DNA from: Mayamaea pseudoterrestris
Lineage: Eukaryota
Assembly (NCBI GenBank): GCA_027923505.1
Contig: BROI01000005.1
Coordinates: 930,001 to 994,000, forward strand
DNA length: 64,000 bases
Direction: 5' to 3'
Shown here: piece after piece, positions 28,894 to 36,001 of the stretch
Numbering within the stretch: position 1 is the stretch's first letter
Layout: each line of letters begins with the position of its first letter
Notes under the pieces: generated by a model
What the model saw: the letters and a program-made list of their open reading frames with translations, nothing else
Told to the model about the DNA's origin: nothing
Database searches by the model: none
Position numbers and translations under genes: made by a program

Positions 28894-29078
28894 AATTAGT
28901 GGTGATGCAATATGTTCGTAATATATGTTCAGTATGAACTATCAGCTGCAACCCATCACATCAGACTCGATTGAAAGATTTTTCCAGGCCGCGTCGCTCC
29001 GGTTCTCTTTTAGCTATGACAGCACGTCTAAGTCACGCGTCTGTCGTCGAAGCGATATTCATTAGATTGGTACCTGTG

Positions 29079-29405
29079 TGTTGCAAACCATGTTAGCTTA
29101 GTGGAATCGAGGATGACACCGAAGATGACATCTATTGAAGATGACGATGATTGGACCGAGGTACAATCAAAGGAGAGGAAGGCTAATAGAAGGGCTTCCT
29201 ACAAGTGTCAAGAAGGGCAGATGCTCCGAGTGAAGGCCCTGGGATAGGACCAGAGGAGGCATCTGATTGTGGCTCTTCACTTGTATCAACGATCAAGGAT
29301 CGTTGACACCAGTCAAGTAGCAAGTAGTGCTCACAAAGCAGTAGAAGAGTCGGTTTAAAGTAATCAGTACGGTTACCACCAGATTCGTTTTGTAGTTATT
29401 CGACA
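29079..29405 (+). repeat. 5' LTR
   Basis: tgttgcaaacc...ttattcgaca; differs from the 3' LTR at 5 of 327 positions. Confidence 0.97.
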
Positions 29406-29456
29406 CGTTAATTAACGTTCACTTCGATCAACAAGAGCTAGCAAGCAACAGACATC

Positions 29457-32400
29457 ATGACGGCCGACACGAGAGAGATTCGAACCAACAAGATGAAGGG
29501 CGTCCCGTTCAAGGGAGAGACGCGAGAGCAGTTTGAGCAGTTCAAGATTATGATCCTCAGAGAAGCCAAGCAAAGCGGCTGCATCCCTTTCCTCATAAGT
29601 GATATGACAAAGGACGTCAACGGAAACCCAACTCCCTTCCTCACGGACATGGAATACGCCCGTCGTCAGATCTGGACGACAGCGGCCACGACAGCAACGT
29701 CGACGCTTCCACGCCCGCCACCCGCTTCGCCAAGTACGACGTTGCCAACAGAGGTTGGAGAGACGGCAGCTACGCCAAGAACCCTGTTTACTTCCTTCCG
29801 CGAGCCAACGTCGCACGAGCTTCTGATGTACCAGAAGGATGCGGAAGCAGGAAACGCCTTGATGGCGAGCGCCGAGAACCCGGGCCTTCGTCAACGCCTC
29901 AACGATAAGAAGACGGCGCATGAGATGTGGTTGATGCTGAACGTCGAGTTTGGCTCTACTCACCTCGTTACCAACCTTGGTAAGCTCAAGAAGAAGCTCA
30001 TCCAAACGACTCCGAGAGACTACGACAAGCCCGAAGAGTTCTTCAGTGTGATCGACTTGAGGAACGGCAACCTTGGCCTCATCGACAACGGCAAGTACAA
30101 GTTCGATGACATCGAGTTGACAATCTTGATGTACGAGAGCATCCCCGATAAAGGAGACCCCAAGTGGGAGGCTTTCAAAGTGGTCCATTCGCCCAACTTG
30201 ACCACGCTGACAGGACTGCAGTTCCGCGAGCTCCTGAAGGACAGCTGGGATCACTTCGGCAATCCTTGCGGCAGCAAGAAGACTGGCAGGGACAAGGATC
30301 ATGCGCTCGCCTTCACGAGCGGCAAGAAAGGTGGATCTGGAAAAGGATACAAGGGCAAGGGTGAGTTCAAAGGCAAGGGAGGCGGCGACACCGCTACCAA
30401 GGCCAACAAACCCAAGAAATTCCGAGAAGACATCACCTGCTTCAACTGCGATAAGGTTGGACACTTTGCAAGCGACTGCAAAGAGCCAAAGAAGGAGAAA
30501 CAAGTCCAGTTTGCAGCATCTGTTAGCTCAACAAGCTCAAAGAAACACACGAAGAGCAGCAAAAAGGACTACGCGTTTGCAATAATGAGCGTTGAAGGGG
30601 TGACGCCAGCAGGCACGCTGGCTCCCACGGTGAAGCAATCTAGCTATGACTCCTTCTTCGATCCAGCCTCCCTCTCGAGTTCACTACCTACACCTACCAT
30701 TCACGCCTTCTACAACCAAGTTTCTGGTAAACAGGCATCATGGGGTTCAGTTTGTGACTCCCAAGCCGATGACGACGACTTCGTTCGTTCGAACATAAGC
30801 CTTGGTGATGGTTCGTTAGCTAGATACGAGATGGAGGAAGCCGAAAGCGAATGGGAAGCAATTGAAGAAGCAGCTGACAACCTTGCGGATACCAATGGTT
30901 ATCAGGACAATGAAGCCAGTGAGGGGTATGTCGCGGCGAGCAACGCCAGCGCCTTTGTGGTAGTTGACTCCACTGTCCCGATCTGGATTGGTAATCCACT
31001 GTTAGCTGGAATTGGTGCGAGCGGCCCTCCCGATGGAAGCGACCATGGGGATGACAGCACCTCTGGCGACGGATGGTCTCCAAGCATCAGCAGTGAATCA
31101 AGCGATGATACAAACGTCACGCTTTCAGAGCTCTATACATGGGAAGAGGCTATGCTCATGTCAGAGAATAAGCACTCGAAGCCGCGCTCAGCCAAAGGCA
31201 TGAAGTTTACCGACAAGCGCAGCGAGATTGAGAAGCTCAACACTCTTCATAAAGAAGTGCAGAAGCAACTTGCAGTGACTGAAAGGCTTGGTAATAGACC
31301 TCCTGACGACTTGTTCATGCAGGTCTTGAAGACTCGATGGTTGAATCGCCCTGACGACGCGCCACTCGATCTGCTCACCAAGTACAAAGTCTTCTGCTAC
31401 TTGAGAGACGAGGAAAGCTCAATGGCAAGCAGCGTCAACAGCTACTATGCTCTCTCAGGAGAGATGATCCAGCGGAACATCACTGAGTACCATCATACAG
31501 CAATGAGGACGACGATGCAGGAGGAGCGAGCTCGACTCGCGGAGGGACAGATCTGTTACCCCGACCCCGGCCAATTCTGGGACCACGTCGTGTGCGATCC
31601 TAGATACAACAATCTACAAGCGTGTACCACTGAAGCAGAGCGACAGTGTGCTAGAGAGTATTTCCGGAATCAAGAGCGAGCAATCCAGCTTGCTGCCGAA
31701 GAAAACTGGAGCGGTCCATACAGCTTCGACGGAATCCGGTCCAACTTCTTTATACCAGTCAGGTTGATGGATGGAAGTGAACTGGAGTATCAGCAGCGAG
31801 CCGAGGCGTATTTTCGCACACCCGCGAACCAAAGGGTTGTTAGCAACTTCCCTATGCGTTTTAATGGTGGCGAAGAAGAGAGCAGCAACGAGCCGAGCGC
31901 ACTCGTCCGTGGAAGAGCTGCCGAAGAAGAGAGCAGCAGCATACCAACGGAGGTCACCGTTGCGCTTGGACACCTTGACTTTGCAGAACAATGGGAATGG
32001 TTCATGAACATTCGCCGACGTGAACAGTATGTGCACGAGCAATTGATGTGTGATATTCGCTGCAGCGTTCAGTGGATCCCGGAGTTCGATTGCGTTGTTG
32101 TTCCAATCGACTACGTCGCAGCAGTTATGGCTGCGACAGACGGCCACACCAACCACACGAACAAGTATCTTCTCGACTCAGGAGCTACTCAACACGTCTC
32201 TTCCTCCGACATGGGAATGAGTTATCTCCAAGCTTGTCCGCTGATTTTGACGGCGGCGAATGGAGAGCCGATGTACACGCCAGTGATGGGAGACTTGCCA
32301 TTACAGACGAAGACGGGGATTCGACTCACGTTGACGGGCGTTCCCGTCGTGCCTACAGCACCGATGAATATAATCAGCATGTCAAAGCTACTTGATGCTG

Positions 32401-33254
32401 GTTGCGAGGTTGCAGAATTTGGGCCGGAACGAGTCCTCCTTCGATGCAATCCAGAGGACCCGACGGACGTACTTGAATTCCTTCGCGAGGAGGGATCGAC
32501 CCTTTACTTCCTTGAAGCCTTTCGTCGACCAGAAAGCATTAATGCGATTGACGATGAATCAAGAGAGGAGGATCGAGACGACGAAGATTTAAATGAGGAG
32601 GACGACGAGGGCGACGATCCTGCAGACGAGGCAATCAATAAGCCTCCGCAGCGCGTCGAGATTAACCAAGCTCATCAAATCCTTGGGCATCCTGGAAAGA
32701 ATCAATTGCAGCAGTACGCAACGCAGTTCAATTGGAAGCTTTACGGCAACTTGGATCAATGCGCTCCTTGCGAGAAAGGCAAGATGACGGCAAAGAAGAC
32801 GGCCAAGTCTACCGCTGTGACAGCTCTGCGACCTGGAGAGCGCATCTTTGTTGACTCGAGTGGTCCTTACGATGAGACACAAGGAAAGAATAAGTATTGG
32901 TTAATGATGGTAGACGATCATACCAGCAGAAAATGGTGCCATTTCACTCGATACAAGTCACAAATGGCCGACGTTGTTATGGAGGAGCTCACGTCGTTGC
33001 GAGCGCGCAACTTCCCTTGCCTCTATCTTCGCCTTGATAACGCTCCAGAATGGCTACCGCTTGAAAAGTATTGCAAGCAGTGGGGCATTCAGATGGAATA
33101 TACCGCCCCGTATACGCCTCAATGGAACGGAAAAGTGGAACGAGCGTTCCCTTATTTGCGCGACAGAGCGTACGCAATGATGAACGCAGCCGCCTTCGCG
33201 ACGAGTCTACAGTTACAAATGACAAAGGAATTGAAGTTAAACAAGTTCCTTTAA
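29457..33254 (+). CDS. Copia ORF part 1: Gag (CCHC knuckle), unknown ~560-aa insert, aspartic protease, integrase N-terminal and core
   Basis: CFNCDKVGHFASDC; LLDSGATQH; HQILGH...CAPC; IFVDSSGP, LRLDNAPE, PQWNGKVER. Confidence 0.9.
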   Translation: MTADTREIRTNKMKGVPFKGETREQFEQFKIMILREAKQSGCIPFLISDMTKDVNGNPTPFLTDMEYARRQIWTTAATTATSTLPRPPPASPSTTLPTEVGETAATPRTLFTSFREPTSHELLMYQKDAEAGNALMASAENPGLRQRLNDKKTAHEMWLMLNVEFGSTHLVTNLGKLKKKLIQTTPRDYDKPEEFFSVIDLRNGNLGLIDNGKYKFDDIELTILMYESIPDKGDPKWEAFKVVHSPNLTTLTGLQFRELLKDSWDHFGNPCGSKKTGRDKDHALAFTSGKKGGSGKGYKGKGEFKGKGGGDTATKANKPKKFREDITCFNCDKVGHFASDCKEPKKEKQVQFAASVSSTSSKKHTKSSKKDYAFAIMSVEGVTPAGTLAPTVKQSSYDSFFDPASLSSSLPTPTIHAFYNQVSGKQASWGSVCDSQADDDDFVRSNISLGDGSLARYEMEEAESEWEAIEEAADNLADTNGYQDNEASEGYVAASNASAFVVVDSTVPIWIGNPLLAGIGASGPPDGSDHGDDSTSGDGWSPSISSESSDDTNVTLSELYTWEEAMLMSENKHSKPRSAKGMKFTDKRSEIEKLNTLHKEVQKQLAVTERLGNRPPDDLFMQVLKTRWLNRPDDAPLDLLTKYKVFCYLRDEESSMASSVNSYYALSGEMIQRNITEYHHTAMRTTMQEERARLAEGQICYPDPGQFWDHVVCDPRYNNLQACTTEAERQCAREYFRNQERAIQLAAEENWSGPYSFDGIRSNFFIPVRLMDGSELEYQQRAEAYFRTPANQRVVSNFPMRFNGGEEESSNEPSALVRGRAAEEESSSIPTEVTVALGHLDFAEQWEWFMNIRRREQYVHEQLMCDIRCSVQWIPEFDCVVVPIDYVAAVMAATDGHTNHTNKYLLDSGATQHVSSSDMGMSYLQACPLILTAANGEPMYTPVMGDLPLQTKTGIRLTLTGVPVVPTAPMNIISMSKLLDAGCEVAEFGPERVLLRCNPEDPTDVLEFLREEGSTLYFLEAFRRPESINAIDDESREEDRDDEDLNEEDDEGDDPADEAINKPPQRVEINQAHQILGHPGKNQLQQYATQFNWKLYGNLDQCAPCEKGKMTAKKTAKSTAVTALRPGERIFVDSSGPYDETQGKNKYWLMMVDDHTSRKWCHFTRYKSQMADVVMEELTSLRARNFPCLYLRLDNAPEWLPLEKYCKQWGIQMEYTAPYTPQWNGKVERAFPYLRDRAYAMMNAAAFATSLQLQMTKELKLNKFL

Positions 33255-35782
33255 AGCTTTGGGCGCACAGCGTGCATACTGCAGTGGTCCTCGACAATTT
33301 ACTCGCTCGAGGCAAGTACAGCAACGCGTACGCCGCGTTCAAGGAGCACCCGTTGGTCCGTTCAACGGATCTCGTCCCTTGGGGAAACCAAGGATGGATG
33401 AAGAAACCAGGAAAGCAAAAGCATTTTGTTTCTAAAGCGGAGCTTGTTTACTTCGTCGGGTACGCCGACTTGCACTCGTCCGACACCTTCCTCGTTTGGA
33501 AACCGTCCACGGGTCAAGTCATTGTCACTAGAAACGTCAAGTTTGCACACCCAGACCATCAGCAAAGGATTGTTAATGAAGGAACGACGAGCGACAGCGA
33601 TTCTGACCGCTCGAGCGATGGCCACAAGGAGGATTCAAGTGATGGAGACTCGCTCCCTCAAGATGCGCCGCCCGAATCGAGCGACGATGAATCGGTCATC
33701 CAATCAGGGAGGGATACAGCTCCTAGAGTCAATCATTTGCCTCTTCCATTGCCGCCTGTTAACAGTCGTCTGCAAAGAGAGCTACGCAGATTGGATTCCG
33801 ATTACAATCCATCGTCTGTTGAAGAAGAAAGAAGAACGCGAGCGTCGGTGCGACAGTCGGAACCAGTCGAGCGTGACACCGTTCCATCACCAATCCCCAC
33901 GGTACCTCAAGTGGCCAGCGTGGCTGCCATTGCAACAAGTAAAGCAAAACGCCCTCCTTTGCCTACTAATGCTAAAGAAGCTTATCTAAAGGAGAACAAG
34001 CTTGTATGGGGACCCGCTACGTTCGAGGAATATGACAAGTTCATGAAGCGCGAGGCCTGGGTTGTCGAGGATCGACCAAAGGATCGCAAGCTGCTTCGAA
34101 TGAAGAACGTTTTCACGTATAAGGAGAATGCCATTACGAGGATCTACGAGGCAAGATGCCGCAACGTTATACTTGGCTACAACATGCGAGAAGGAATCGA
34201 CTATAACGAGTCGTTCTCGCCAACGCCAGTGGATCAAACAATTCGCACCCACCTCACCGTCTCCCTGTTCATTCGACAGGAGATAGAGGATCGAGACGGC
34301 CCCGAGGCAGCAGAAGCTAACTGGAGATGCTGCGATGTGTTCGATATAGACGCTGCGTTCCTCAATACGCCAGTCGCGACAGACTTGTGGATCGAGGCGC
34401 CACCGTTGTTTGAAGAATATTGCAAGTCGAGAGGAATCCCGTTCGATCCGACCAAGCAATGCTTGCGACTCGCCAACACGCAATACGGGCAAGTCGATGC
34501 CTCAGCACTGTGGCTAAAGCACTTCGCAAAGATCCTACACGCTGCAGGAATGACGCGGATGAAGAGCGATCCGTGTATGTTCTTCAAGAGGTCGCCAGAC
34601 GGCACGCTTCTTCTACTCGTTACAATCTACGTTGACGATGCTGCAGTTAGTGGAGTCCCTCGAGAGGTTGAGGAACTCAAACGCAAAGTTAAAGAGTACG
34701 TTGACATAAAGGATCTTGGACCAATCAGGAAGCATCTTGGCATCCATTACAAGCTCCTGCGTGACAAGGTCGGCGTGTACTACGAGTGCACGATGACGAC
34801 GTACAAGAACGATATAATCTCTGAGTTTAAACGATACACAAACCAGACGACTCTAAAGGACGTACAAACGCCAGCGCCAGGAGGATCTTCGCTACTCAAG
34901 AACGAAGGCGAGCCGATCGATTCAACTGGATACAGATCGTTCAAAGGGAAGGTACTCTTTGGCGACAGAAAGGTCTGGCCCGATATTAGCAACGCCGTAA
35001 GAGACGGATGCTCCCACGTTAACAATCCTAGCGAGGAAGCGTGGAAGCAGCTCACGAGAATCATGAGTTATTTGGAGCATCACGAGCAGCCGTTGAAACT
35101 TCGCACGCCGAACTCTTTGCAGTCGTTTGCTATATCAGATACAGACTGGGCGACGGACAAGAATGACCGCCGCAGCACGACGAGTAACCTCACGTTGCTT
35201 GGAGGAAACGCGCTCGTCAACTGGGTATCTCGAAAGCAGAAGACCGTGGCTCTATCAAGTACTGAAGCAGAGACTTACGGAATGACGGACGCCGTCAAGG
35301 ATCTAGTCTTTCAAGAGAATCTTGTGAGCGAGATACTGGGATTCCAAGCGCCTGGACCAATGATAGCATACTGCGACAACACTGGAGCGATCTTTCTTGC
35401 AACGAACAATCAAGTTAGCCAGCGCACGAAGCACATTGATATAAGACACAGGTTCATCAGCGAGCTAGTCGAGAGCGGCAAACTCGAGTTGCGCTACATC
35501 AAGACTGATGAGAATCCAGCAGATATCCTTTCAAAGAATTGCAAGGAGGAGATTCATCTAAAACATGCCGATGCCATTTACGATGGATTCGCCGCATCAC
35601 CGATTCAGGAGGATGTTGCAAACCACGTTAGCTTAGTGGAATCGAGGATGACACCGAAGATGACATCTATTGAAGATGATGACGATTGGACCGAGGTACA
35701 ATCAAAGGAGAGGAAGACTAATAGAAGGGCTTCCTACAAGTGTCAAGAAGGGCAGATGCTCCGAGTGAAGGCCCTGGGATAG
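33254..35782 (+). CDS. Copia ORF part 2 (-1 frame): integrase C-terminus, SH3-like, reverse transcriptase, RNase H
   Basis: KLWAHSVHTAVVLDN; YFVGY; ESFSPT, DIDAAFLN, YGQVDAS, IYVDD; SDTDWATD, SSTEAE, CDNTGAI, KHIDIRHRFI, ENPADILSK. Confidence 0.9.
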   Translation, partial: KLWAHSVHTAVVLDNLLARGKYSNAYAAFKEHPLVRSTDLVPWGNQGWMKKPGKQKHFVSKAELVYFVGYADLHSSDTFLVWKPSTGQVIVTRNVKFAHPDHQQRIVNEGTTSDSDSDRSSDGHKEDSSDGDSLPQDAPPESSDDESVIQSGRDTAPRVNHLPLPLPPVNSRLQRELRRLDSDYNPSSVEEERRTRASVRQSEPVERDTVPSPIPTVPQVASVAAIATSKAKRPPLPTNAKEAYLKENKLVWGPATFEEYDKFMKREAWVVEDRPKDRKLLRMKNVFTYKENAITRIYEARCRNVILGYNMREGIDYNESFSPTPVDQTIRTHLTVSLFIRQEIEDRDGPEAAEANWRCCDVFDIDAAFLNTPVATDLWIEAPPLFEEYCKSRGIPFDPTKQCLRLANTQYGQVDASALWLKHFAKILHAAGMTRMKSDPCMFFKRSPDGTLLLLVTIYVDDAAVSGVPREVEELKRKVKEYVDIKDLGPIRKHLGIHYKLLRDKVGVYYECTMTTYKNDIISEFKRYTNQTTLKDVQTPAPGGSSLLKNEGEPIDSTGYRSFKGKVLFGDRKVWPDISNAVRDGCSHVNNPSEEAWKQLTRIMSYLEHHEQPLKLRTPNSLQSFAISDTDWATDKNDRRSTTSNLTLLGGNALVNWVSRKQKTVALSSTEAETYGMTDAVKDLVFQENLVSEILGFQAPGPMIAYCDNTGAIFLATNNQVSQRTKHIDIRHRFISELVESGKLELRYIKTDENPADILSKNCKEEIHLKHADAIYDGFAASPIQEDVANHVSLVESRMTPKMTSIEDDDDWTEVQSKERKTNRRASYKCQEGQMLRVKALG

Positions 35783-35940
35783 GACCAGAGGAGGCATCTG
35801 ATTGTGGCTCTTCACTTGTATCAACGATCAAGGATCGTTGACACCAGTCAAGTAGCAAGTAGTGCTCACAAAGCAGTAGAAGAGTTGGTTTAAAGTAATC
35901 AGTACGGTTACCACCAGATTCGTTTTGTAGTTATTCGACA
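35614..35940 (+). repeat. 3' LTR
   Basis: Direct repeat of 29079-29405. Confidence 0.97.
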
Positions 35941-36001
35941 CCTGTGGTCATCAACAAGACTTGTATAATCTGAAAATCATCTCCGCAACACAAGTTACTA
36001 A

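Follow-up and report, generated by a model that had tools for sequence, protein, structure and literature searches.

A family-specific, constrained-looking expansion of the linker between nucleocapsid and protease in a Ty1/copia polyprotein

The window analysed here is a 64,000-nucleotide stretch of Mayamaea pseudoterrestris DNA (contig BROI01000005.1 of assembly GCA_027923505.1, positions 930,001 to 994,000 of the forward strand), and it carries a complete Ty1/copia element in which 565 amino acids (aa) separate the zinc knuckle of Gag from the DSG motif of the protease. We favour, with a probability of roughly 0.45, the view that a hypervariable nucleocapsid–protease linker has been expanded in this family into a translated and constrained spacer, which is probably a cleavable pro-region. 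The spacer is an extreme case of a linker whose length is often considerable in the lineage, and it includes an orphan part of 310 residues that looks coding and constrained. Positions below are those of the window.

An open spacer between the zinc knuckle and the protease

The knuckle, of the form C..C....H....C, occupies 30438-30479 and the D of DSG lies at 32175; these positions show that a preliminary description of this DNA had given its coordinates correctly, and the peptides quoted there were all found in the translation. The stop-free region that it had reported from CCHC to DSG is equally real: 30480-32165 translates into 562 residues with zero stops, while mononucleotide shuffles of the same 1686 nucleotides (nt; n = 20,000) held 26 in-frame stops on average and 9 at the minimum, and none of them was stop-free (0/20000). 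Pfam places no family between zf-CCHC (aa 327-343) and Pol_BBD (aa 904-983) at E <= 0.1. Between the knuckle and the protease, the following parts can be told apart:

30480-30668, plus strand: post-nucleocapsid stretch, alignable with P0002, the closest relative; it holds DYAFAIMSV at 30567-30593, and the alignment runs to aa 404
30669-31166, plus strand: variable half rich in Ser, Asp, Glu and Ala, probably disordered, as judged by its composition and by length differences between copies
31167-32096, plus strand: orphan block of ~310 aa (aa 571-880), of globular-type composition and helix-rich in a low-confidence model

The segment ahead of the block (aa 344-570) consists of 17.2% S, 10.6% A, 8.8% D and 7.5% E, with K and R together at 5.3%, and is where most of the length variation between copies is seen. 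Six listed length differences fall inside the spacer, all within 30518-31377: four at 30518-30900, one of which also begins in the preceding post-nucleocapsid part, and two at 31160-31377. Among the joints listed, to which the full table adds three, there is none over 31378-32165; a seventh listed difference (30151-30338) lies in gag, just ahead of the knuckle.

The C-terminal ~310 aa, by contrast with intergenic DNA, look like real coding sequence. The codon-position chi2 per 100 codons is 11.4 in the block, 12.6 in the protease–integrase region (PR-IN) and 10.6 in the reverse transcriptase–RNase H region (RT-RH), against 4.8 in the intergenic flank, and the GC content at codon positions 1/2/3 is likewise similar (0.56/0.40/0.59 in the block, 0.57/0.41/0.56 in PR-IN and 0.55/0.41/0.56 in RT-RH). 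The block has an ordinary globular composition; the earlier wording, which called it rich in Trp, Cys and Tyr, overstated the case, as aa 571-890 contain 1.9% W, 2.5% C and 4.1% Y, compared with 1.7%, 2.3% and 4.3% in PR-IN.

No membrane-type helix was found in the spacer, whose top 19-residue Kyte–Doolittle mean (1.45) falls at the N-terminal strand of the protease; a hydrophobic patch at aa 496-526 has a mean hydropathy of 0.71 over 31 residues. Comparison of the spacer protein with itself for internal repeats gave the self-match only. Two further candidates were set aside: an origin of the insert by duplication of an AFA motif, as the DNA around the two motifs agrees at only 34 of 111 positions, and an antisense open reading frame (ORF) at 31614-32156, which matches no Pfam family and was taken as chance.

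The junction in related elements

To place the spacer among its relatives, 35 proteins were retrieved (9 with PR-IN as the query and 26 with a six-sequence alignment), and the linker was measured in the 15 in which a knuckle and a downstream D[ST]G were found by pattern, bearing in mind that some of the plant records may be chimeric predictions. The distance from knuckle to DSG in these 15 of 35 relatives ranges from 71 to 405 aa, with a median of 160, so that the statement of the preliminary description that this spacer is normally short in Ty1/copia does not stand; the 565 aa found here are the longest. Those with long linkers (P0002, P0007, P0008, P0013 and P0015) probably belong to the CoDi-like branch of the copia elements of diatoms (Maumus et al. 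2009, PMC2806351; Llorens et al. 2009, PMC2774666), an assignment that we regard as putative.

P0002, which is 43% identical in PR-IN, follows the polyprotein up to aa 404, 63 residues past the knuckle, and again from aa 902, and BLASTP gives no alignment with it over aa 404-902. The first of these alignments covers aa 114-404 (E 6e-23) and pairs KKDYAFAI-MSVEGVTP with EEEMAFAVRVEAKEVAP. This gap, together with the lengths measured in the relatives, indicates that the junction is hypervariable in the lineage and that the family-specific part comprises approximately aa 405-880.

The spacers of five closer relatives are acidic, Ser-rich or repetitive; D and E make up 22-27% of the linkers of P0002, P0007 and P0008, and short repeats are visible in P0008. 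The long-linker relatives (P0002, P0007, P0008, P0013 and P0015) share with the present element both the domain order and the succession of a knuckle and an acidic or Ser-rich stretch before the protease. Their linkers differ from ours in being 194-405 aa long and low-complexity or repetitive-looking, and none has the ~310-aa block. A long linker is thus a habit of the lineage, of which 565 aa is the extreme.

Two motifs appear to bracket the variable material. A hydrophobic, Ala-rich motif follows the basic nucleocapsid (DYAFAIMSV here, MAFAVRVEA in P0002, MAMFVGV in P0004 and AVAVADI in P0013), and a second one, DYVAAVMAA here, stands ~20 residues ahead of DSG, at the site expected for the N-terminal strand of a retropepsin. 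In P0005, which has a short linker, the two are ~ten residues apart, and the difference in spacing suggests that the variable material sits between them; the pattern was drawn by eye and is a weak one.

The available text of Maumus et al. (2009, PMC2806351) lacks the word "spacer", its gag passages naming CCHC fingers only and leaving the junction undiscussed; the CoDi passages of Llorens et al. (2009, PMC2774666) treat a chromodomain only and not this junction; and the words gag, protease and polyprotein are absent from the accessible part of a 2025 preprint on diatom elements. A literature search, judged by titles and abstract openings, turned up no paper dealing with this junction in the copia elements of diatoms.

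Constraint between copies

Contigs of four public sequencing runs (X1, X2, X3 and X6 among them) were aligned to 29000-36000, and differences between copies were used to gauge selection. The variants listed comprise 40 of 413 single-base differences, all 40 of them classified and 3 non-coding. Synonymous and nonsynonymous changes number 8 and 6 in the spacer (5 and 3 in the block, 3 and 3 in the N-terminal half) and 12 and 11 in the rest of the coding sequence. Against the 27-28% synonymous changes that the observed mutation spectrum predicts under neutrality, the binomial P is 0.017 in the spacer and 0.0135 outside it, with no difference between the two regions (Fisher P 1.0). On this small sample there is a hint that the spacer may be about as constrained as gag and pol.

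Searches for homologues and for a fold

An exhaustive HMMER search with the last 338 aa (spacer aa 225-562) returned none of 1,835,955,588 representative proteins at E <= 0.001. The whole spacer, in a word-based search of longer proteins, had no match among 8000 candidates; the sequences of the PDB gave 0 matches at E <= 10, and the ESM Atlas gave no usable match for the last 338 aa. The sole Pfam match at E <= 10, Endotoxin_N (E 0.071, 13.3 bits against a cut-off of 21.3), was put down to chance. A metagenome scan produced 66 pattern matches, a single one of which passed tblastn; this locus (L001) was a false hit, since it lies on a prokaryote-type contig where the peptide pattern occupies an unused frame opposite housekeeping genes. 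Among viral contigs there were 4 pattern matches, 0 of them confirmed. Compared with the element's own gag and pol, the 35 relatives and the rest of the window, the block reached a best E of 1.4 and the low-complexity N-terminal half a best E of 0.013.

The preliminary description had proposed a captured or novel domain. Its picture of a long, open, family-specific and coding-like polypeptide is retained. Capture of a known domain, as far as sequence comparison can tell, is unsupported, because there are zero homologues and the block is absent from P0002. Most likely, we infer, the ~310-aa block arose de novo within the element lineage and not by capture of a host domain.

The host element, its copies and its mobility

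The spacer sits between two 328-nt long terminal repeats (LTRs) flanked by a 5-bp target duplication, and the element has the marks of the Ty1/copia (Pseudoviridae) type: besides the LTRs and the duplication, a pol gene in the order protease, integrase and RVT_2, and a Gag with a CCHC knuckle. ORF 29457-33254 (1265 aa) encodes the knuckle, a copia-type protease barrel (Pol_BBD) and the integrase core. The remaining features, all on the plus strand, are as follows:

29079-29406: 5' LTR, 328 nt, with the target-site duplication CTGTG just before it (29074-29078) and 5 mismatches against 35614-35941
29457-30479: gag, with a single CCHC zinc knuckle (30438-30479) at its end; zf-CCHC at aa 327-343, E 3.9e-06
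32097-32405: protease; Pol_BBD at aa 904-983, E 3.5e-08; DSG at 32175-32183; DYVAAVMAA at 32109-32135; 43% identity to P0002 from aa 902
33185-33186: frame break inside the integrase of the copy in the window, with one G fewer than in other copies; ORF1 runs to 33254, while ORF2 is already open from 33071 on
33071-35782: remaining pol in the -1 frame, with the integrase SH3-like domain (SH3_retrovirus, 4.8e-08), reverse transcriptase (RVT_2, 2.9e-26) and RNase H; its last 169 nt lie inside the 3' LTR
35614-35941: 3' LTR, differing from the 5' LTR at 5 of 328 positions and followed directly by CTGTG at 35942-35946

Gag also gives a weak match to Retrotran_gag_2 (Pfam, E 0.037). DYVAAVMAA (32109-32135) would, by its position, be the N-terminal strand of the protease. 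The integrase core, matched by rve at aa 1125-1221, scores 25.2 bits, below the cut-off of 32.6, yet is 43% identical to the integrase of P0002. Outside the spacer, an acidic run with a net charge of -0.39 per residue lies between protease and integrase (aa 1021-1062), and a Ser/Asp run follows the SH3-like domain in the same polyprotein. The part of the 3' LTR at 35614-35782 encodes the last 56 residues of the polyprotein (169 nt of the pol frame), and the 5' LTR holds the same stretch. A perfect 14-nt palindrome, ACGTTAATTAACGT, lies across the end of the 5' LTR (29405-29418), the place at which one expects a tRNA primer-binding site. It may be compared with the Conserved Hairpin Site of fungal GalEa copia elements, as presented in the relevant part of PMC5445492.

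DNA of the spacer is present in 6 of the 7 public runs listed, none of which is recorded as RNA. In X1, 139 contigs fit 29000-36000 (59 at >=99% identity, 26 at 95-99%, 24 at 90-95% and 30 lower), and X2 is alike; the family is multi-copy and the element young or recently mobile. Contigs of X1 and X2 also join 29073 directly to 35942, skipping 6868 nt with 5 letters shared, which is the structure of an empty target site, so that the insertion is not fixed but polymorphic or heterozygous, despite the differences between its LTRs (5 of 328 positions). Differences between copies over 29000-36000 are dominated by C>T (76 in X1 and 77 in X2) and G>A (78 and 83), with every other type at 9-39, the pattern that deamination of methylated cytosines is expected to leave in a repeat that is silenced. 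X6, a run from the same study as X2 that is labelled as another organism, contains a few near-identical pieces of the element (31885-35835, depth 2-4), which could be carry-over between libraries or a shared element.

An extra G behind 33185 accounts for 27.2 of 110.8 of the summed depth in X1, 185.3 of 558.3 in X2 and 3.33 of 3.33 in X3; when it is restored the two frames merge, and the resulting reading SRLRDES resembles ARLSLET in the integrase of P0004. Since other copies carry this G, the family includes open-frame members, and the copy in the window is probably crippled and not autonomous, or else contains an assembly error at this base. The break may be common to several copies, as most of the summed depth in the DNA-like runs is without the G.

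Interpretation and alternatives

The expansion that we favour would work as follows. The 565-aa linker would be made as part of a single Gag-Pol polyprotein. Its first ~225 aa are acidic, Ser-rich and variable in length, like the linkers found here in relatives, and its last ~310 aa are a family-specific polypeptide that would be kept by purifying selection. Lying directly upstream of the protease, the pro-region may act in cis, by analogy with p6*, the transframe region of HIV-1 Gag-Pol: its acidic half would counterbalance the basic nucleocapsid, and the whole would restrain dimerisation or activation of the protease until particle assembly, to be cut out then near the two bracketing hydrophobic, Ala-rich motifs.

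Several observations weigh against this proposal. Any sequence at this place must stay open for pol to be produced, so an open frame alone does not show function. The sample behind the apparent constraint is small (14 of the 40 listed differences, out of 413, lie in the spacer), and several of its variants come from one diverged contig and hence are not independent. That contig (X2 record 11, 31486-31960) aligns with 27 gapped letters, 475 bases of the window standing against 450 from the contig. Because three does not divide the difference, the block may be decayed in one copy or more. The break in the integrase means that the copy in the window is itself probably not autonomous. Of 100 known-family proteins, 91 have an ESM Atlas recognition value above the 1422 obtained here. 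AlphaFold2, run on the single sequence without an alignment, returned a mean predicted local distance difference test score (pLDDT) of 35.1 and a predicted template-modelling score of 0.22, with 0 residues at or above 70; about half of the residues were drawn as helices, none of them trustworthy, and with a pLDDT of 35.1 no fold is demonstrated for the block. Finally, p6* is about a tenth of the size of the spacer.

The same evidence can be read in other ways. Were the block a new accessory protein, as the preliminary description proposed, cut out by the protease and acting in trans on the host (for example in anti-silencing, in targeting or as a particle scaffold), one would understand why no length variation is listed over 31378-32165, why its codon-position signature resembles that of the enzymes and why 5 of its 8 listed variants are synonymous, and the nucleocapsid-dUTPase of betaretroviruses, as described in the pertinent part of PMC1802613, is a precedent for a real domain at this junction. 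We consider this unlikely: the block has zero homologues, no recognisable motif and no confident fold, and its absence from P0002 would confine the function to one family. The missing homologues and fold, along with the low Atlas value, would equally suit a tolerated filler, in which slippage and insertions pile up in a linker that needs only to keep its frame, the block itself being without function; the spread of 71-405 aa among relatives, without sequence conservation, and the insertions and deletions that distinguish copies in the first half point the same way. What makes such a filler doubtful is that the spacer shows as much synonymous excess as gag and pol do, that the composition is of globular type with a codon-position chi2 per 100 codons of 11.4 against 4.8 in the intergenic flank, and that no internal repeats point to slippage. 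A broader scheme, in which the junction of these protist copia elements is a general cargo slot between two conserved Ala-rich motifs, filled with modules that vary by family and here with a selected, protease-released de novo domain that would serve the particle or counter host control, strikes us as quite improbable.

It is also conceivable, though very improbable in our view, that the extra DNA matters chiefly as nucleic acid, carrying signals for a regulatory antisense or subgenomic transcript, with the protein secondary. One contig of X3 (record 17, 29357-30591) joins 30336 to 30437, and the 100 nt skipped (30337-30436) read on the minus strand CAG/GTGATG...TCCTTTTCCAG/ATCC, the form of a canonical intron; the contig ends at 30591, inside the spacer, at a depth fourfold that of X3 contigs farther downstream. 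X3 has zero depth over 29000-29233 and no empty-site contig, and so behaves like RNA, though its kind is not on record. Taken together, these features suggest that gag is covered by a spliced antisense transcript extending into the beginning of the spacer, a situation that resembles the antisense RNAs of Ty1. Against a role of this sort, the signal comes from a single contig of a run of unrecorded kind, a contig end does not mark the end of a transcript, no more than the first ~110 nt of the spacer are touched, and both the synonymous excess and the 310-aa block are left unexplained.

The same region holds a 363-codon antisense ORF (29412-30503, minus strand) that spans all of gag in the codon-aligned frame. 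The GC content at third codon positions is 0.71 in gag, against 0.52-0.59 elsewhere in the element, and there are zero stops in the codon-aligned antisense frame; the ORF could be a genuine overlapping gene or a side effect of codon bias. In a transcript with the putative splice, its frame would not be entered until past the junction.

Significance

The polyproteins of retroelements are mostly presented as a set series of familiar domains. Should the present junction be able to grow a constrained 300-residue segment without relatives, it would offer a tractable example of how a protein is born within a mobile element and, possibly, a handle on the timing of protease activation in single-frame copia elements. 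As it stands, the spacer is an extreme member of a lineage habit of long acidic linkers, accompanied by no more than a small-sample hint of constraint, and constitutes a moderate lead that falls short of a discovery.

Comparison with known systems

Betaretroviral dUTPase is encoded between nucleocapsid and protease, the very junction considered here. In Mason-Pfizer monkey virus it is made as a nucleocapsid-dUTPase fusion and represents a folded accessory domain, according to the portion of PMC1802613 that deals with it. That dUTPase is a recognisable captured enzyme, whereas the spacer of the present element matches no Pfam family, dUTPase included. The p6* protein, about one tenth as long as the 565-aa spacer, derives from a frameshift overlap. 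Like the spacer, it follows the nucleocapsid and lies directly N-terminal of the protease in Gag-Pol; the likeness is one of working only, since there is no sequence relation between the two, and for the spacer both cleavage and an effect on the protease are proposals. For p6* itself, which is directly upstream of HIV-1 PR, the relevant passages of PMC4451514 give a proposed function in modulating PR activation, and it is a role of this kind that the pro-region may play in the copia element described here.

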